From the NCBI RefSeq assembly GCF_041248615.1, contig NZ_CP158426.1: a stretch of 64,000 bases of DNA; one strand, written 5' to 3'. Made by a program: the position numbers and the translations under genes. The notes beneath the pieces were generated by a model that saw only the letters and a list, made by a program, of their open reading frames with translations, had not been told where the DNA came from and ran no database searches. Below are positions 52,605-62,951 of this stretch, piece after piece. Source of the DNA: Escherichia coli. GTDB lineage: Bacteria; Pseudomonadota; Gammaproteobacteria; Enterobacterales; Enterobacteriaceae. Each line of letters starts with the position of its first letter. Within the stretch, counting starts at the first letter, position 1.

Positions 52605-54257
52605 TCAGACCAACCAAAGCTTCTTCAATTGCGTTTTCATTTTTTCATGTCTCATTTTCAGTTCAGCCAATCCCCATTCTGAAGAATTACAAACATCTTT
52701 TGTTAAATCAAAAGAGCTTTTACTATTAAGTTTCTCATAAATAGATTTCTTTTTGATAAAATCATAGTGTTGTGCTTCAGAATTTTTGGAACCACTTATG
52801 AGTGTTAAATTACCTATTTTATGCAGCCAGTAGACATGCTCTTGAGGTTGGAATCTATTAATCCAGTATTCATTAACTAATGCTTGAGGAAGAATATGCT
52901 CAATTGTGATTCTCCCCGTATAGGTTTTAATCACGCTCTCATCTTGTTGCTCCATGTCTAAGCGAAGCAAAATTGCTTTTATTAAGTTCACTTGATTCGG
53001 ACGAGGCTCATATAAATCTTCATCCAGAGCAGCTATAAAACCTGAATTATCTGCATGTTGGTTTATCTGATTTATCACAGAATCAAAAGGCATATCATTA
53101 TTTATTGCTACCAGAGCTGAATAACAAACCATTTCTCTTTGGCTTTTAATTTGTTTTTTTAACCACCCATGCATATATACCTTCTCAAAGGCGGTAATAA
53201 ATTGAGAAAAATCATCTAAATTAAAATCTTCTGTACGAGCCATTCGATTCATGAATGCCATAACCGGAGGAATCCACTCATCTACCCCTAAATTACTTAG
53301 CGATGCTATTTTTCGTCGTATTGAAGGGTGTTCAAAATCATTCTCTAAAATCTTAGTATAATTTTTTGCAGAATTAACCAACATCAGTGACATAGCAATA
53401 GCATCTCCATCAAATTGCTGCTGGAGATTTTCAATAAAAGCTTCAAAACCTTTTTGTAATACCCTGTCACGATCTTTTTTCTCGGAAAGCTTATGAAGAG
53501 TAAGAAATTTATCAAGCCGTCTCACTCCAACCATATCTTCAATTTGCGACCATGCTGATTCTATTTGCTCTGATTTTTTATTATGCGTAGAAGCTGATTC
53601 AAACAGTGCATTTTTTAAAAGATCTGCATTACTTAAAGGTAAACCTCGACTATTTAATACATTAAAGAGTCTAAATGATGATGCGAAATCATCAGTTTGC
53701 ACAAATACGATATATACATTTTGCAAAATATATTTAGCAAGCAACTTCAACTCATCAACAGATAACCGCAACAAATAATCTCTAATTGTTTCAGCGTTGC
53801 TAATGAATACTAACTCAGTATCCGATGGCTTTTCAGGTTTATAATCTTTAGAATCCTGCAGTATATAATATTTATAAAGATCATACTCTTTTTTTCTAAC
53901 AATTAGTCTTGGTTCATCAGTTTCATCAGAATAAACATCAATAGGCAGAACTCTTTTTTGCAAATCATCTTTTATCCCCTGAATCGGGATGATTTTTTTT
54001 AGCTCGGAGACAATAATGCTTAACGTTGTAAGACGTTGTTGTCCATCTACAACTTCATACTGATTTTGCCCTTTATTGATACAAATCATACTCCCAATAA
54101 AATATTCATTCTCTTCTGATTGAGAGCTTTTATAAATATCATCAATGAGTTGCTCTGCATTATCTACCGTCCAACTGTAAGGACGCTGATAAGAAGGAAT
54201 AATAAACTTTTTGTTTTCAGTAAGGATATCCTGCACCTTACATTCTTTAGCTTCCAT
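52605..54257 (-). CDS. DUF262 + DUF1524 (GmrSD-family) putative type IV modification-dependent restriction endonuclease, occupying the K-12 mrr slot
   Basis: N-terminal ParB-like DUF262 motifs (IPSYQRPYSW, VVDGQQRLTTL); C-terminal His-Me finger DUF1524 motif (TIEHILPQ...GNLTLISGSKN); AT-rich; first ATG 54257 (track TTG 54278). Confidence 0.7.
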   Translation of the reverse strand: MEAKECKVQDILTENKKFIIPSYQRPYSWTVDNAEQLIDDIYKSSQSEENEYFIGSMICINKGQNQYEVVDGQQRLTTLSIIVSELKKIIPIQGIKDDLQKRVLPIDVYSDETDEPRLIVRKKEYDLYKYYILQDSKDYKPEKPSDTELVFISNAETIRDYLLRLSVDELKLLAKYILQNVYIVFVQTDDFASSFRLFNVLNSRGLPLSNADLLKNALFESASTHNKKSEQIESAWSQIEDMVGVRRLDKFLTLHKLSEKKDRDRVLQKGFEAFIENLQQQFDGDAIAMSLMLVNSAKNYTKILENDFEHPSIRRKIASLSNLGVDEWIPPVMAFMNRMARTEDFNLDDFSQFITAFEKVYMHGWLKKQIKSQREMVCYSALVAINNDMPFDSVINQINQHADNSGFIAALDEDLYEPRPNQVNLIKAILLRLDMEQQDESVIKTYTGRITIEHILPQALVNEYWINRFQPQEHVYWLHKIGNLTLISGSKNSEAQHYDFIKKKSIYEKLNSKSSFDLTKDVCNSSEWGLAELKMRHEKMKTQLKKLWLV

Positions 54258-54534
54258 TTCATATACCCAATCAAACAATCAACAATAACATTATCTTTCT
54301 TGCTCGAAAGAAACGCAACTATAAGATTTTTATATATTTTGTTAGAGTTGATATGGTTCCTGTAACTTCTGTTTATCTGTCTCTGATATGCCCAGATTAA
54401 TTCAAGCAAGATATAACAGAGATATCAATGTGATCTCTGCTACGTACTTTACGTTGAAACACCGCCCTAAATCATAGCCAGGCTATTGATTTTATGTACA
54501 ATCAGAATCGTCCTGATAAAAGCGAGAATACCCC

Positions 54535-56967
54535 ATGGCGGAACTGAACCTAAGTAACCTGACGGAAGCAGACATCATTACCAAATGCGTTATGCCAGCC
54601 ATTCTCAATGCAGGCTGGGACAACACAACGCAAATCAGACAGGAGGTCAAACTCCGGAACGGTAAAGTCATCGTACGTGGTAAAGTTGCGGCACGCAGAA
54701 CGGTAAAATCTGCTGACATCGTGCTGTATCACAAACCAGGCATTCCCTTAGCCGTGATTGAAGCAAAAGCCAACAAACATGAAATCGGCAAAGGGATGCA
54801 ACAGGGCATTGAATATGCGCGCCTGCTGGACGTTCCTTTTGTTTTTGCCACCAACGGTGATGGCTTTATCTTCCGCGACGCCACCGCAGCCGAAGGTGAA
54901 TGCCTTGAAAAGCAAATAACGCTGGATGACTTCCCCTCCCCCGCTGAACTCTGGCAAAAATTCTGCCTCTGGAAAGGATACACACAAGCTCAGCTTCCGG
55001 TGATTACTCAGGACTATTACGACGATGGCAGCGGTAAATCACCACGTTATTACCAGCTTCAGGCAATCAACAAAACCATTGAAGCCGTCTCCAACGGGCA
55101 AAACCGCGTTCTGCTGGTCATGGCGACCGGAACAGGGAAAACCTATACCGCATTCCAGATCATCTGGCGCCTGTGGAAATCAAAAAATAAAAAACGCATT
55201 TTGTTCCTTGCCGATCGCAACATTCTGGTCGACCAAACCAAACATAATGATTTCCAGCCATTTGGTACGGCAATGACCAAAGTCAGCGGACGCACCATTG
55301 ATCCCGCTTATGAAATTCACCTCGCGCTCTATCAGGCTATAACTGGCCCGGAGGAAGACCAAAAAGCGTTTAAACAAGTCGCACCAGATTTCTTCGATCT
55401 GATCGTGATCGACGAATGCCATCGCGGCAGCGCATCCGAAGACAGCGCCTGGCGAGAGATCCTTGATTATTTCAGTTCCTCCACCCAAATTGGCTTAACC
55501 GCCACGCCAAAAGAGACGCATGAAGTCTCCAGCACGGATTACTTCGGCGATCCGGTTTACGTCTACTCACTAAAAGAAGGGATCGAAGACGGCTTCCTCG
55601 CCCCTTATAAAGTTGTCCGTGTTGATATTGATATAGACCTGCAAGGCTGGCGCCCAACCAAAGGGCAAACTGACTTAAACGGCGAAGTGATCGACGATCG
55701 TATCTATAACCAGAAAGATTTCGATCGCACGATGGTAATCGACGAACGCACAGAACTGGTTGCCAGAACCATTACCGACTACCTCAAGCGCACCAACCCG
55801 ATGGATAAAACCATCGTCTTCTGTAACGACATCGATCATGCAGAACGTATGCGCCGCGCCCTGGTTAATCTCAACCCGGAGCAGGTGAAAAAGAACGACA
55901 AATACGTCATGAAAATCACCGGCGATGATGAAATTGGCAAAGCTCAGTTGGATAACTTCATCAACCCGAAAAAACCGTACCCGGTTATCGCGACCACTTC
56001 AGAGCTGATGACCACCGGTGTGGATGCTAAAACCTGCAAACTGGTAGTACTGGACCAGAACATCCAGTCGATGACCAAATTCAAGCAAATTATCGGTCGT
56101 GGTACACGCATCGACGAACGTTACGGCAAACTCTGGTTTACCATCCTCGACTTTAAAAAAGCCACCGAACTGTTTGCCGATGAGCGTTTCGATGGCATTC
56201 CCGAAAAAGTCATGGATACCACGCCAGAGGATATCGCCGACCCAGAATCTGATTTTGAAGAGAAACTCGAAGAAATCAGCGAACATGACGACGAACAGGT
56301 AACAGGCGTTGATGAACCGCCTGCGCCACCATACCAGGTTACCGATACCGATGATGTCGGCCCACTTCCGGAAGAAGACGAGAAGAAAATCCGCAAGTTT
56401 CACGTCAACGGTGTAGCGGTGGGCGTTATTGCGCAGCGTGTTCAGTATTACGATGCCGACGGTAAACTGGTTACCGAATCTTTTAAAGATTACACCCGCA
56501 AAACACTGCTCAAAGAATATGCCTCGCTGGATGACTTTACCCGCAAGTGGCAGGACGCCGATCGCAAAGAAGCGATCATTCACGAGCTGGAACAACAGGG
56601 GATCATCTGGGAAGTACTGGCAGAAGAAGTCGGTAAAGATCTCGACCCGTTCGACATGCTTTGCCACGTAGTGTATGGTCAGCCGCCGTTAACCCGCAAA
56701 GAGCGCGCCGAGAACGTGCGCAAGCGGAACTACTTCACAAAATACTCTGAAGCAGCGCAAGCCGTGCTCGATAATCTGCTGGATAAATACGCCGATGCGG
56801 GCGTACAGGAGATCGAAAGTATTCAGGTGCTGAAACTTAAGCCATTCGACAGCATGGGCACCTTACCGGAGATTATTAAAACCGGATTTGGCGACCGTAA
56901 CGGGTATAATCAGGCGCTCAGCGAGCTGGAAAACGAAATCTACCAATTACCGCCCCGCTCTGCTTAA
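54535..56967 (+). CDS. hsdR: type I restriction enzyme R subunit (810 aa, type IB/EcoAI-like size class)
   Basis: SF2 helicase motifs (MATGTGKT Walker A, DECHRGSA); length fits the type IB class, not the 1170-aa EcoKI HsdR. Confidence 0.9.
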
Positions 56968-56981
56968 CAACTCTCTTTTGC

Positions 56982-57020
56982 GCCTTCTGCAACCATCATG
57001 TTGCAGAAGGCCTTGTTTTT
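56982..57020 (+). terminator. perfect 11-12-bp hairpin plus T-run in the hsdR-hsdM spacer
   Basis: GCCTTCTGCAA (56982..56992) pairs with TTGCAGAAGGC (57001..57011), then CTTGTTTTT. Confidence 0.5.
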
Positions 57021-57033
57021 CATGGAATACAAC

Positions 57034-58503
57034 ATGTCTATCAGCTCAGTAATCAAATCATTACAAGATATTATGCGCAAAGATGCCGGTGTGGACGGCG
57101 ATGCGCAGCGTCTCGGTCAGCTCTCCTGGCTGCTGTTTTTGAAAATCTTCGATGCCCAGGAAGAGGCGCTGGAACTGGAGCAGGATAACTATCAATATCC
57201 GATCCCACAGCGTTATTTATGGCGCAGTTGGGCCGCAAACGCTCAGGGCATTACCGGTGATTCCCTGCTGGAATTCGTTAATGATGATCTGTTCCCGGCG
57301 TTGAAAAACCTCACTGCGCCTATCGATAAAAACCCACGCGGCTACGTGGTAAAGCAGGCGTTCAGCGATGCCTATAACTACATGAAAAACGGTACGCTAC
57401 TGCGTCAGGTGATCAACAAGCTGAACGAAATTGACTTTACCAGCGCCAGCGAACGGCATCTGTTTGGTGATATTTACGAGCAGATCCTTAAAGATCTGCA
57501 ATCTGCGGGCAATGCGGGCGAATTCTATACTCCACGCGCCGTCACTCGCTTTATGGTGGATCGCGTTGATCCGAAACTCGGCGAATCCATTATGGACCCG
57601 GCCTGCGGTACGGGCGGTTTTCTTGCCTGCGCATTTGATCATGTAAAGAACAAATACGTGAAGAGCGTCGCCGATCATCAGACGCTGCAACAACAGATCC
57701 ACGGTGTTGAGAAAAAACAGCTTCCGCACCTGCTGGCGACCACCAATATGCTGCTACACGGCATTGAAGTGCCAGTGCAAATTCGTCACGACAACACTCT
57801 GAACAAACCGCTTTCCTCCTGGGATGAGCAACTGGATGTCATTGTTACCAACCCGCCGTTTGGTGGCACGGAAGAAGACGGTATTGAGAAGAACTTTCCA
57901 GCAGAGATGCAAACCCGCGAAACGGCGGATTTGTTCCTGCAACTGATTGTGGAAGTACTGGCGAAAAATGGTCGCGCGGCGGTGGTATTGCCGGATGGCA
58001 CACTATTTGGCGAAGGCGTTAAAACCAAAATCAAAAAGCTACTTACCGAAGAGTGCAACCTGCATACCATCGTGCGCTTACCGAATGGTGTGTTTAACCC
58101 CTATACCGGCATTAAAACCAACCTGTTGTTCTTTACCAAAGGTCAGCCAACCAAAGAGATTTGGTTCTATGAGCATCCGTATCCGGCGGGCGTGAAAAAT
58201 TACAGTAAAACTAAGCCGATGAAGTTTGAAGAGTTTCAGGCGGAGATTGACTGGTGGGGTAACGAGGCCGATGGTTTTGCCAGCCGCGTCGAGAATGAGC
58301 AGGCGTGGAAAGTCAGCATTGATGACGTGATTGCGCGCAACTTCAATCTGGATATTAAAAACCCACATCAGGCGGAAACCGTTAGCCATGATCCGGACGA
58401 ACTGTTAGCGCAGTATGCAAAACAGCAGGCGGAGATCCAGACGCTGCGTAATCAACTGCGCGATATTCTTGGCGCTGCGCTGTCTGGCAAGGAGGTTAAC
58501 TAA
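57034..58503 (+). CDS. hsdM: type I N6-adenine DNA methyltransferase M subunit (489 aa from ATG 57034)
   Basis: SAM motif I (DPACGTGGFL) and motif IV (NPPFG); stop overlaps hsdS start (TAATG). Confidence 0.9.
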   Translation: MSISSVIKSLQDIMRKDAGVDGDAQRLGQLSWLLFLKIFDAQEEALELEQDNYQYPIPQRYLWRSWAANAQGITGDSLLEFVNDDLFPALKNLTAPIDKNPRGYVVKQAFSDAYNYMKNGTLLRQVINKLNEIDFTSASERHLFGDIYEQILKDLQSAGNAGEFYTPRAVTRFMVDRVDPKLGESIMDPACGTGGFLACAFDHVKNKYVKSVADHQTLQQQIHGVEKKQLPHLLATTNMLLHGIEVPVQIRHDNTLNKPLSSWDEQLDVIVTNPPFGGTEEDGIEKNFPAEMQTRETADLFLQLIVEVLAKNGRAAVVLPDGTLFGEGVKTKIKKLLTEECNLHTIVRLPNGVFNPYTGIKTNLLFFTKGQPTKEIWFYEHPYPAGVKNYSKTKPMKFEEFQAEIDWWGNEADGFASRVENEQAWKVSIDDVIARNFNLDIKNPHQAETVSHDPDELLAQYAKQQAEIQTLRNQLRDILGAALSGKEVN

Positions 58504-60248
58504 TGAGTGTGGAAAAGCTGATCGTTGATCATATGGAAACCTGGACCTCGGCGTTGCAAACCCGTTCCACCGCCGGGCGCGGCAGTTCCGGAAAAATTGA
58601 TTTATATGGCATTAAGAAATTACGTGAGCTGATTCTGGAACTGGCTGTGCGCGGTAAACTGGTGCCGCAGGACCCGAACGATGAACCGGCGTCGGAGCTG
58701 CTGAAGCGTATTGCGGCAGAAAAAGCAGAGCTGGTGAAGCAAGGTAAAATTAAAAAGCAAAAACCACTGCCGGAAATTAGTGAGGAAGAGAAGCCGTTTG
58801 AATTGCCGGAGGGATGGGAGTGGGTGCGTATTAGTGAAATTGGACATGACTGGGGACAAAAAACTCCAGATAAAGATTTTACTTACATTGATGTTGGTTC
58901 AATAAATAAAGAATATGGAATTATTGAAGAGCCATCTATTCTTTCAGCGAAAGATGCCCCATCGCGAGCGAGAAAAATTGTTCAGCAAGGGACTATCATA
59001 TACTCTACTGTTCGCCCGTATTTGTTAAATATAGCTATTATTGAAAACGAAATACTACCTGAACCGATCGCTAGTACTGCCTTCGCTATTATTCATCCAT
59101 ATACGGCGATGGATGCTAATTTCATTTATTATTATCTACGTTCTCCGGTATTTGTTTGTTATGTTGAAAATTGTCAGACAGGGGTTGCCTATCCAGCAAT
59201 CAATGACAAACAATTTTTTTCTGGAATAACTCCAGTTCCTCCATCCTTGGAACAAGTTCGCATCGCAAACAAAATCAAAGAATTAATGTCCCTCTGCGAC
59301 CAACTGGAACAGCAATCCCTGACCAGTCTGGACGCACATCAACAACTGGTTGAAACCCTGTTGGGAACGCTGACTGACAGCCAAAACGCCGAGGAACTGG
59401 CTGAAAACTGGACGCGTATTAGCGAGCATTTCGACACACTATTTACCACCGAAGCCAGCGTGGATGCGCTAAAACAGACCATTCTGCAACTGGCGGTAAT
59501 GGGTAAACTTGTGCCGCAGGATCCGAATGACGAACCTGCCTCTGAACTGCTCAAACGAATTGCGCAGGAAAAAGCACAACTGGTGAAAGACGGGAAAATA
59601 AAAAAACAAAAACCGTTGCCGCCGATTAGCGATGAGGAAAAACCGTTTGAACTGCCGGATGGGTGGGAGTGGTGTCGTATCGTTGATTTAGCAATTGTAG
59701 GTACAGGCGCAACACCTTCTCGTGATGAGCCCAACTATTGGAAAAATGGAGTAATTAATTGGGTGACAAGTGGAGAAACTTGCTTACCTTTTATTCAAAA
59801 CACCACCGAACATATTACCCAAAAGGCTGTTGATGAAACAAATGTTTCAATCTATCCACCAGGAACTCTTATTATTGCAATGTATGGACAAGGAAAAACA
59901 AGAGGGCAAATCACAGAGTTATTAATAAGTGCTGGAACAAACCAAGCATGCGCAGCCATTCGATTAATCGAAACGGATAATGAGCATCGTAAATTTATAA
60001 AACTTTTTTTTGAAAAGTCTTATGATGATTTACGTAGTTTAGCCGCTGGAGGTGCACAGCCAAATCTAAATGTAGCAAAAATATCACAAACTGTTATACC
60101 ATTGCCCCCTAAAAGAGAACAAAATCGGATCGTTTCTATTGTGGGGGAGTTATTAATTTATTGCGATAAATTACGCAAAAATATCCAGACCGCCCAACAA
60201 ACCCAACTGCACCTTGCAGATGCACTAACTGACGCGGCGATAAACTAA
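58503..60248 (+). CDS. hsdS: type I specificity subunit HsdS (581 aa) with two conserved repeats flanking AT-rich target-recognition domains
   Basis: GKLVPQDPNDEPASELLKRIA...KQKPLP...EEKPFELP(E/D)GWEW repeated at about residues 45-110 and 330-395; AGGAGG SD. Confidence 0.9.
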   Translation: MSVEKLIVDHMETWTSALQTRSTAGRGSSGKIDLYGIKKLRELILELAVRGKLVPQDPNDEPASELLKRIAAEKAELVKQGKIKKQKPLPEISEEEKPFELPEGWEWVRISEIGHDWGQKTPDKDFTYIDVGSINKEYGIIEEPSILSAKDAPSRARKIVQQGTIIYSTVRPYLLNIAIIENEILPEPIASTAFAIIHPYTAMDANFIYYYLRSPVFVCYVENCQTGVAYPAINDKQFFSGITPVPPSLEQVRIANKIKELMSLCDQLEQQSLTSLDAHQQLVETLLGTLTDSQNAEELAENWTRISEHFDTLFTTEASVDALKQTILQLAVMGKLVPQDPNDEPASELLKRIAQEKAQLVKDGKIKKQKPLPPISDEEKPFELPDGWEWCRIVDLAIVGTGATPSRDEPNYWKNGVINWVTSGETCLPFIQNTTEHITQKAVDETNVSIYPPGTLIIAMYGQGKTRGQITELLISAGTNQACAAIRLIETDNEHRKFIKLFFEKSYDDLRSLAAGGAQPNLNVAKISQTVIPLPPKREQNRIVSIVGELLIYCDKLRKNIQTAQQTQLHLADALTDAAIN

Positions 60249-60374
60249 TTTTCTCGCCCTCAAAAAAACCAATAAAGCGGCTCAATAGCCGCTTTATTAA
60301 CATCACCAAAAATTATATTTCACGCTAATTTTCATCTTATTTTCATTAATTTTTAGCTGGACTTTCCCTGTATT

Positions 60375-60396: not shown

Positions 60397-60473
60397 TTAG
60401 CGCGGTGCGGATGTGCGCCAACACACCCACACCGCTCATCACAATCCCTATTTCACGAGAATAGTAATCATGA
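60397..60473 (-). ncRNA. symR: SymR antisense sRNA (approximate position, inferred from symE)
   Basis: in K-12 the ~77-nt SymR is encoded antisense over the symE 5' UTR and start codon; coordinates are by analogy, not read from a conserved sequence. Confidence 0.3.
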
Positions 60474-60811
60474 CTGACACGCATTCTATTGCACAACCGT
60501 TCGAAGCAGAAGTCTCCCCGGCAAATAACCGTCAATTAACCGTGAGTTATGCGAGCCGCTACCCGGATTACAGCCGTATTCCCGCCATCACCCTGAAAGG
60601 TCAGTGGCTGGAAGCTGCCGGTTTTGCCACCGGCACGGCGGTAGATGTCAAAGTGATGGAAGGCTGTATTGTCCTCACCGCCCAACCACCCGCCGCCGAA
60701 GAGAGCGAGCTAATGCAGTCGCTGCGCCAGGTGTGCAAGCTGTCGGCGCGTAAACAAAAGCAGGTGCGGGAATTTATTGGGGTGATTGCGGGTAAACAGA
60801 AAGTCGCCTGA
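60470..60811 (+). CDS. symE: SOS-induced toxin SymE (113 aa, AbrB-fold endoribonuclease-like)
   Basis: [47 protein letters not shown]... matches recalled K-12 SymE. Confidence 0.9.
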
Positions 60812-60857: not shown

Positions 60858-62951
60858 TTATACCAACGCGTTCTCCATCTGTTTTTCAAATGCCTGACGA
60901 ATTAATCCCATAATGTAAGGAAGTTGTGCGAGGTCGCTGAAACCAATTTCCACATCACCATTGCCCCAGCGCCCAACATTTGTCACATCTTTGGCAATAC
61001 CTTTCGGATCGACCAGTTCATGAAACTGCATATTAAGCGACAATCGCAGTCGGCTTTTTTGCGGCACAACATCAACAAAATTCGTTTCAGCTTTAAACGC
61101 AATATATAGCTTCAATACTTCCTGCGTGATCCCTGCGTCCAGGCGCATAACTTCATCGCGAAGATGATCGAATAACACTCGGCTATGCGAACCATCAGCA
61201 AGAAAAGGAAAATCATTCAGGCTGTAACTGGTTTTGTTTTCAGGCTGCCCCCGATAAACAGCTAAAACCTCTTCAGGAAGAGCAGGCGCTTGCCAAACCT
61301 GAACCGCAAGCTCCGCCAGACGATCGGCACGGGCATGAATGGCGGCTTCATCCCATTTTTCGCACTGTCCAAGACCGATATTCAAATAGAGCGGGCTATG
61401 TTTAAAGCCGTCTTCAATATCGCGTTTTTCCGCGAAAGGTCTGTCACTGTAGCGGGAGTTATAGCGCGTTAAAGTGAGATTCCCCAACGTATGTAACAGT
61501 TCTTTATGCACACGCTGCCAGTCGCTTCCCAGCTCTTCACGCCATTTAGCCGACAGATTTTCGTTCTGCGGCATAATATGCTCAATCGTAAACTCTTCCA
61601 CGCGCTCTCTGCGTTTATCGTTTTCCAGTCGTCGTAACCAGTAGCTGCGACTACGGAAGTTATAGAGATCGCGAACTTTTAATTCCCGTTTAAATTCATC
61701 ATCGTTGGGGAAACGACGATATGAAGGCAGATTCAGAAAATGTACCTGAATACTTTCCAGATATTTTTCTTTAATAATGACCTTATAAAAGGTAGCAAAC
61801 GTCTTGTTAAGAGAATTTGTCGGAATCGCACATACTGCACGGCGGAAAACATAAGATTCAATTAAACGAATTATGCTCAGGAAATCTTCGTGAGGCAAAT
61901 CGCCATTTTTATAGTCATGATAAAGCGCCAGTAAGAAAGGATACGCCACATCGACCTTTAACTCGCGCAAATCCTGAAAAGCCGTAGCAAGCGATTTGTC
62001 ACTTTCTTTACCCAATGCCATTGCACAGTAATACTCCGCGTAGATGTGAATATCTTCAACCAGGCGATCTACGCCTTTTTCAGCAACACTCTGGCTGCGG
62101 GCATGGAGTTTAAATGCCTCATAGACTTCATCTGTCCGAGGGATCTCCCCCGTTTTTACCGTCAGATAATGACGCATAAAACTGTCAAAATATTCGCTGT
62201 AACCTTGCTGACCAAAAGCGACTTCCATGGGTCGCCAGTGATCTTCATACAACCGGGTTTGATGCTCTGGTTCGAGGCCCATCAGAATAAAATTGCGCAC
62301 CAGATCGGCCTGACTTAACGCCTTACCGGTAGAGTTCATACTTTCAAAAATCAGTTGCGGATTATCCTGACCACGATTAAGCGCCACATCGACAATTAAT
62401 AATTTTGCTAACCCACGACATAAGGGAATCAAGTCATCCCCGAGTTTGGCAATTTGTTCATCAAAGAAAGTAAAGTTTTCCATTATTCGATGGGAATAGT
62501 TTTCTGGCATTGGTCTTTGTTTTATTAACGCCAGCAAACTGTCTTTATCAGTCTCGGTCAGCAGTAATTTAAATCCTTTCTCGCCGGACTCATAAGGATT
62601 GAGTAAATAATAATTACGCAATTTCATTGCTGAAAAGCCATCAAAAACTTCGTCTTCGCCAAGATGACGCGATAAAGCCTCAATCAGCAACATTGCGGTC
62701 GTCAGCCTTTGTTGACCATCAATGACCAGTAACGGAGAAATACCAGAAACCTGATACAACCCCTGCTCAATATAAACAACCGAACCGATAAAATGCGCTG
62801 ATATATCGTCACGCTTTCCGGCACGAATGATGTCGTCCCAAAGTTGCCGACATTGTTGTTCTGTCCATGAATAAGTCCGTTGATAAATGGGAATAACAAA
62901 CTGCTGCGAACGTTTTAAAAAATCGAGTAGGCGGGCTTCTGTAGCTTTCAT
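60858..62951 (-). CDS. second DUF262 + DUF1524 (GmrSD-family) putative type IV restriction endonuclease, occupying the K-12 mcrBC slot
   Basis: 697 aa; N-terminal IPIYQRTYSW and VIDGQQRLTTA (DUF262); C-terminal FTIEHIMPQN...GNLTLTRYN (DUF1524). Confidence 0.7.
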   Translation of the reverse strand: MKATEARLLDFLKRSQQFVIPIYQRTYSWTEQQCRQLWDDIIRAGKRDDISAHFIGSVVYIEQGLYQVSGISPLLVIDGQQRLTTAMLLIEALSRHLGEDEVFDGFSAMKLRNYYLLNPYESGEKGFKLLLTETDKDSLLALIKQRPMPENYSHRIMENFTFFDEQIAKLGDDLIPLCRGLAKLLIVDVALNRGQDNPQLIFESMNSTGKALSQADLVRNFILMGLEPEHQTRLYEDHWRPMEVAFGQQGYSEYFDSFMRHYLTVKTGEIPRTDEVYEAFKLHARSQSVAEKGVDRLVEDIHIYAEYYCAMALGKESDKSLATAFQDLRELKVDVAYPFLLALYHDYKNGDLPHEDFLSIIRLIESYVFRRAVCAIPTNSLNKTFATFYKVIIKEKYLESIQVHFLNLPSYRRFPNDDEFKRELKVRDLYNFRSRSYWLRRLENDKRRERVEEFTIEHIMPQNENLSAKWREELGSDWQRVHKELLHTLGNLTLTRYNSRYSDRPFAEKRDIEDGFKHSPLYLNIGLGQCEKWDEAAIHARADRLAELAVQVWQAPALPEEVLAVYRGQPENKTSYSLNDFPFLADGSHSRVLFDHLRDEVMRLDAGITQEVLKLYIAFKAETNFVDVVPQKSRLRLSLNMQFHELVDPKGIAKDVTNVGRWGNGDVEIGFSDLAQLPYIMGLIRQAFEKQMENALV

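Follow-up and report, generated by a model that had tools for sequence, protein, structure and literature searches.

The hsd locus described here raises the question of how the genes of a type I modification enzyme, hsdM and hsdS, are transcribed when a hairpin that resembles an intrinsic terminator stands directly before them. Little is known about transcription of the type I restriction systems in general (PMC12707154, section 20). Searches of the literature and reviews on the transcription of EcoAI yielded data on EcoKI only. In early papers on EcoA, a separate promoter for hsdMS was reportedly inferred. The locus was analyzed within a window of 64,000 nucleotides of Escherichia coli DNA, the whole stretch under study, and positions are those of the window unless another record is named.

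The hsd genes are chromosomal and located in the immigration-control region of E. coli. In an E. coli record that is identical, PGAP gives the gene order btsT-yjiX-yjiA, a DUF262 gene, hsdR, hsdM, hsdS, symE, a GmrSD gene and yjiS. The region was matched at 90-100% identity in 946 of 5426 complete E. coli genomes, i.e., about 17% of them carry the locus, O157:H7 and CFT073 being among the carriers. The hsdR gene (54535-56967, + strand, stop codon TAA at 56965-56967) was recognized from its open reading frame, the NF046051 model and the PGAP annotation of the identical record, and codes for a restriction subunit of 810 amino acids. The comparison of HsdR to NF046051 (EcoAI/FtnUII family) produced a score of 1189.7 bits, with a cutoff of 550, and therefore the system can be classified as type IB, which is the type named in an earlier note on this DNA. 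The order hsdR-hsdM-hsdS, found in the open reading frames as well as in the PGAP names, fits the EcoAI family.

The hsdM gene (57034-58503, + strand) specifies a methyltransferase subunit of 489 amino acids. Its ATG at 57034 is the start in the PGAP annotation of the identical record and aligns with the first residue of HsdM in practically all 80 related loci that were fetched from other species. Two other start codons were considered and rejected. The longest open reading frame (56998-58503) starts at an ATG that would make the protein 12 codons too long and is not conserved in the relatives, and we regard it as an artefact of open reading frame listing; the ATG at 57022-57024 is in frame but is not conserved in other genera. 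The gap between hsdR and hsdM is then 66 nt (56968-57033). The specificity subunit gene hsdS (58503-60248, + strand) begins with an ATG that shares one base with the hsdM stop codon (TAATG; junction at 58490-58505), with the sequence AGGAGG (58490-58495) 8 nt 5′ of it. An inverted repeat located 3′ of hsdS (60268-60301) has a T-run when read on the − strand, and its 3′ arm is T-rich on the + strand; it is probably the end of both the hsdMS transcript and the convergent transcript from the symR side. The SymR antitoxin RNA (Rfam RF01809, 88.1 bits; 60399-60475, − strand) is antisense to the start of symE (60413-60811, + strand) and is found directly 3′ of hsdS, as in E. coli K-12. Intact type IV restriction genes of the GmrSD family (DUF262 and DUF1524-type) flank the hsd genes on both sides (52605-54278 and 60858-62951, both − strand), the latter with an additional C-terminal DUF5655 domain. 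In the O157:H7 records TR01 and EDL933, one or both of the GmrSD counterparts are split or annotated as pseudogenes.

The space between hsdR and hsdM contains a perfect hairpin with a stem of 12 bp and a loop of 6 nt (56982-57011), followed by CTTGTTTTT. The 5′ arm, GCCTTCTGCAAC (56982-56993, + strand), starts 14 nt past the hsdR stop codon, and is followed by the loop, CATCAT (56994-56999), and by the fully paired 3′ arm, GTTGCAGAAGGC (57000-57011), the last base of which is 22 nt before the hsdM ATG. The first two bases of the in-frame ATG at 56998-57000 belong to the loop and the third opens the 3′ arm; the loop is where E. coli variants differ. Seven of the 12 pairs are G-C, and the hairpin alone has a folding energy of -20.3 kcal/mol. 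When a region of 86 nt was folded, the z value was -4.07 and none of 200 shuffled sequences was as stable. The inverted repeat is present as a single copy within the window, with a chance expectation of 0.00, and once per genome in 940 E. coli genomes; this copy number led us to discard a REP/BIME-like repeat. No Rfam family was found for the hairpin at E ≤ 1. The T-rich tail, CTTGTTTTTC (57012-57021, + strand), is a putative U-tract composed of one C and then seven T within eight nt (57013-57020). A Shine-Dalgarno-like GGAA (57024-57027, + strand) is located outside the hairpin, 6 nt before the hsdM ATG, and GGAA or GGAAAG was found again at the same position across the enteric loci. The earlier note had described a perfect hairpin and T-run filling the whole spacer (56968-57036). 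Both are there, although the T-run is imperfect (C-UU-G-UUUUU, with a C in the first place and a single G interruption) and the extent was overstated: hairpin and T-run occupy 39 of the 66 nt, leaving 14 nt 5′ of the hairpin and 13 nt, including the GGAA, after the T-run.

These properties were compared to those of Rho-independent terminators. The stem-loop is G+C-rich and its dimensions are within the usual range (stem of about 5-14 bp, loop of 3-8 nt), and it lies on the sense strand, 14 nt past the TAA of hsdR. The copy of the hairpin on the − strand has no U-tract. The U-tract T score was 2.16, and a composite score of the d'Aubenton-Carafa type was about -12, a marginal value obtained with a formula that was calibrated on older energy parameters.

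To place the hairpin in a comparative frame, the spacers of every related locus with a gap of up to 300 nt were collected. A hairpin with a T-rich tail was found at the same place in all 29 enterobacterial type IB loci, which include Kluyvera, Citrobacter, Klebsiella, Raoultella, Lelliottia, Erwinia, Pectobacterium, Dickeya, Rahnella, Pantoea, Buttiauxella and Cedecea, with energies between -14.6 and -27.9 kcal/mol. The geometry is fixed: the distance from the stop codon to the hairpin is 11-17 nt, except for 35 nt in Cedecea, and that from the hairpin to the ATG is 22-29 nt. The stems vary in sequence from clade to clade (GCCTTCTGCAAC, GCCACCTGTGGC, TGCCACCGG.., GTCTGTCACCG). The RNAalifold consensus of an alignment of 27 distinct spacers is the same hairpin that was seen in the window, and 92.2% of the cells in this alignment are paired, a proportion that fell to 32-51% when the 3′ partner was slid by 1-3 columns. 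Compensatory double changes were present in seven of the ten consensus pairs, and the observed covariation score was reached by none of 500 shuffles. The non-Watson-Crick cells included 20 G.U and 2 A.C, and therefore it is the + strand RNA, rather than the complementary one, that has retained the pairing. The columns of the T-tract are nearly invariant and are among the most conserved of the spacer. As judged by these comparisons, the hairpin is real and is under selection, and a covarying stem with a conserved T-tract, on the sense strand and just past a stop codon, is the signature expected of an intrinsic terminator. The terminator-like character that the earlier note had seen in a single spacer extends to the enterobacterial type IB loci compared.

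Variation at the element was also observed. In four variant E. coli genomes that were inspected, the changes are in the loop, beside the stem or downstream, or yield G.U pairs; the most divergent of the four, JNEC-KY176, has also lost the terminal G-C pair. The Cedecea sulfonylureivorans locus (L032, 3900-4001) has an unrelated G+C-rich hairpin of 39 nt, TTCCCTCGCCCC...GGGTGAGGGGA, and retains the T-tract and a distance of 26 nt to the ATG. Two of the records fetched look like products of mis-binning or contamination: a contig labelled as a Bacillota metagenome-assembled genome (L002), where HsdM and the hsdR-hsdM spacer are 100% identical to those of the window and the HsdR C-terminus is 99.5% identical, and one labelled Chryseobacterium sp. 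(L019) with a locus of the enterobacterial type.

Promoters were searched for by consensus and with our own sigma-70 matrix, which takes into account the -35 and -10 hexamers, a spacing of 15-19 nt and a bonus for TG. The consensus scan of the hsdR-hsdM spacer gave no site. When the -10 hexamer was required to lie within the spacer, the best matrix score was 3.6 (TTGCAG-16-TGGAAT) against a shuffle mean of 5.8, and 85% of the shuffles scored equally well or better. Inspection of the spacer by eye revealed no match to the sigma-54 or sigma-E consensus. No sigma-70 promoter-like site above chance is present in the spacer, and a sigma-70 promoter of hsdMS located there, as in EcoKI, was not found. 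A promoter 3′ of the terminator is excluded on geometrical grounds in the enteric loci because only 22-29 nt separate the stem from the ATG in each of them, and the statement of the earlier note that no room is left for a separate promoter agrees with the 22 nt found in the window. With a spacer devoid of a promoter, the hsdMS transcripts would have to start 5′ of the hairpin and read through it. The earlier note had presented read-through and a promoter in the 3′ end of hsdR as two options. These are not true alternatives since a promoter in the 3′ end of hsdR would also be 5′ of the hairpin, and passage through it would be needed in either case.

Two regions upstream of the hairpin were inspected for candidate promoters. 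In hsdR, synonymous-site variation over the last 200 codons of 30 enteric loci revealed no clearly constrained stretch. Two positions of the alignment, 288 nt and 91 nt 5′ of the stop codon, have recurrent promoter-like matches, and the first of these, TCGACA-17-TATGGT in the window (56651-56679), is the best site there, with a score of 9.2. Neither was accepted as evidence of a promoter: they are spelled by conserved F-D, Y-G and E-I-I codons, they are missing in about one third of the loci, and sites of this strength occur about once per 1.3 kb on the strand, that is, at background density. No site stands out inside hsdR, in the 3′ end of which the earlier note had allowed for a promoter, and the two recurrent ones are leads and not evidence. 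Near the start of hsdR, TAGCCA-16-TACAAT (54475-54502, + strand), 32 nt 5′ of the hsdR ATG, is a candidate for the hsdR promoter (Pres) on the basis of a consensus match only (9/12). The strongest promoter-like site near the locus, TTGATA-16-TAAAAT (54076-54103, + strand, matrix score 13.7), lies within the opposite-strand GmrSD gene about 430 nt 5′ of hsdR and could be an alternative hsdR promoter. The matrix scan returned another promoter-like site 5′ of hsdR at 54329-54357. The hsdMS transcripts may originate at the hsdR promoter or at one inside hsdR.

We consider it fairly probable that the element is an intrinsic (Rho-independent) terminator of hsdR, active in the + strand RNA, that is incomplete and acts as an attenuator inside the gene cluster. 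According to this model, RNA polymerase leaving hsdR would meet a hairpin of -20 kcal/mol followed by an imperfect U-tract. A part of the transcripts would terminate there, and the remaining ones would run 22 nt further into the GGAA ribosome-binding site and hsdM-hsdS. Each hsdMS transcript would come from the hsdR promoter, or from a putative promoter inside hsdR, by reading through the hairpin. We infer the termination itself, its partial nature and the upstream origin of the hsdMS transcripts from the nucleotide sequences. Termination would probably be partial because the U-tract is suboptimal, with a C at the first position and a G interruption, and expression of hsdMS would depend on read-through because any promoter that serves these genes is located 5′ of the hairpin.

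There are points against the leaky terminator. If hsdMS were expressed purely by read-through from the hsdR promoter, its mRNA would be no more abundant than that of hsdR, which is the opposite of the expected need of a restriction-modification system. The stoichiometry would then call for an extra promoter within hsdR, or else for translation and the known ClpXP control of HsdR (PMC12707154) to compensate. A further point against the model is that in the classical type I systems of E. coli hsdM-hsdS usually has its own promoter (PMC3510504); no convincing one was found here. It is plausible that the hairpin may set the ratio of methylase to restriction subunit, as the earlier note had proposed. 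A more elaborate version seems distinctly unlikely to us: the hairpin would be a regulated attenuator that adjusts the amount of hsdMS relative to hsdR, or its timing (e.g., with growth state or fresh entry into a cell), or, in some clades, hsdMS transcripts would avoid the hairpin by starting within it. If this were true, the type IB systems would have a layer of transcriptional control, where only ClpXP proteolysis of HsdR is known.

The presence of a conserved and covarying hairpin in the + strand RNA, together with a marginal U-tract, would also fit a structure with a role in RNA stability or processing. Such a hairpin would cause little termination within a polycistronic hsdRMS mRNA, and would protect the 3′ end of hsdR from exonucleases after cleavage in the AU-rich stretch 3′ of it, or would be found at the 5′ end of the hsdMS message or close to it. 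The K-12 type IA hairpin, with its T-rich tail and a position 3′ of a promoter-like site, hints at a hairpin in the hsdM leader. We find this explanation rather doubtful since a T-tract would be superfluous in a hairpin with a pure stability role, and the one that follows the stem directly is among the most conserved columns and persists in Cedecea despite the replacement of the hairpin.

The initiation of hsdMS transcripts inside or 3′ of the terminator, from a weak promoter that overlaps the hairpin, is very unlikely. The sole candidate in the window, TTGCAG (57001-57006)-16-TGGAAT (57023-57028), has no A at the key second position of its -10 hexamer, and its score of 3.6 is lower than the shuffle mean of 5.8. 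Transcripts from this site would start at about the ATG, producing a leaderless hsdM mRNA from which the conserved GGAA would be excluded. Overlapping sites with better scores do exist in some relatives, such as CTGCCA-18-TATTGT (score 7.1) in the clade of Klebsiella, Kluyvera and Raoultella, where the spacer is 8 nt longer, and CTGCCG-17-TAGAAT (score 8.3) in Dickeya (L017), but the site is not conserved across clades and the E. coli clade does not have it. A degraded T-tract, CTTATTGTTA, was seen in the loci L003-L008 (Kluyvera, Citrobacter, Klebsiella, Raoultella), and CTGCCA-18-TATTGT lies over the hairpin in most of them, L004 (Citrobacter youngae) being without it. Given this decay of the T-tract in Klebsiella-like loci and the overlapping promoter-like site, the element may work differently among clades. 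Operators of controller proteins are known in some restriction-modification systems, and a perfect palindrome of 12 bp with a center of 6 bp just 5′ of hsdM has the appearance of a DNA operator for a dimeric regulator. This interpretation is extremely improbable: the arms vary between clades while the pairing is kept, the many G.U wobbles are sensible only in RNA, an unrelated hairpin takes the place of the repeat in Cedecea, and the annotated locus has no regulator gene.

A leaky terminator of hsdR, the reading that we prefer, would have counterparts among the partial intrinsic terminators known in gene clusters, i.e., attenuators such as those of rplL-rpoB and rpsU-dnaG (T1) in E. coli. In these cases, as in the hsd locus, a hairpin and a U-tract are found between co-oriented genes with no promoter before the 3′ gene, and therefore expression of the 3′ gene depends on read-through. 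There are also differences: the 3′ genes of those clusters are needed at a lower level, whereas the methylase is expected to be at least as abundant as the restriction subunit, and read-through in the hsd locus is only predicted.

A different arrangement was found in the type IB loci of other bacteria. The loci with long gaps from marine gammaproteobacteria (e.g., L037, L048, L052, L060) have proteins of the same family (HsdM 77-86% identical) and a terminator-like hairpin after hsdR, but differ from the enteric loci in having room, and strong promoter-like sites, 3′ of the hairpin. Where the gap of a non-enteric type IB locus measures 115-290 nt, TATAAT or TAAAAT sites with scores of 10-11 are located 36-44 nt before the ATG. 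Four of six such loci include a terminator-like hairpin, with the promoter-like site 3′ of it, and their layout is the classical one of a terminator followed by a promoter. In ten loci of Vibrio, Photobacterium and Salinivibrio (L036, L038, L041, L050, L056, L063-L065, L068, L069), 1.1-2.8 kb are inserted between hsdR and hsdM. Two Vibrio loci were checked (L036, L038), and their inserted open reading frames, one for an N6/N4 DNA methylase plus small ones with no Pfam match, have the opposite orientation; the open reading frame in the gap of a Salinivibrio locus (L065) is on the same strand. Where opposite-strand genes separate hsdR from hsdM, as in several Vibrio loci, hsdM needs a promoter of its own.

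As an intrinsic terminator or attenuator, the element is of an ordinary, known kind, the position of which is slightly puzzling here, and a parallel has been reported in EcoKI, the type IA system of E. coli K-12. Two weak promoters and an apparent terminator 3′ of hsdR were described for EcoKI (PMC12707154, section 20). Both systems have the order hsdR-hsdM-hsdS at the same chromosomal site, and in both hsdM shares one base with hsdS (PMC3510504), a type of junction that has been described for the translational coupling of EcoKI. The K-12 hairpin with a T-rich tail (positions 244-222, − strand, of NC_000913.3 4582850-4583350) is likewise separated by 22 nt from the ATG of hsdM; its geometry is similar to that of the type IB hairpin, but its sequence is unrelated. 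The spacers differ: the gap in K-12 is 200 nt, with a reported hsdMS promoter and a TTGATG...TATATT promoter-like site 5′ of the hairpin, whereas the type IB gap in the window is 66 nt and has no promoter-like site above chance. The distinctive point is that a predicted terminator has been kept across the whole enterobacterial type IB family while the hsdMS promoter is apparently not in the spacer. A leaky terminator would fix the proportion of restriction and modification transcripts; with an efficient one, there must be an unrecognized route of hsdMS expression. Either outcome would be a modest refinement, in which methylase genes located directly behind a conserved terminator-like hairpin, with no room for a promoter of their own, depart from the textbook picture of two promoters that is based on EcoKI.
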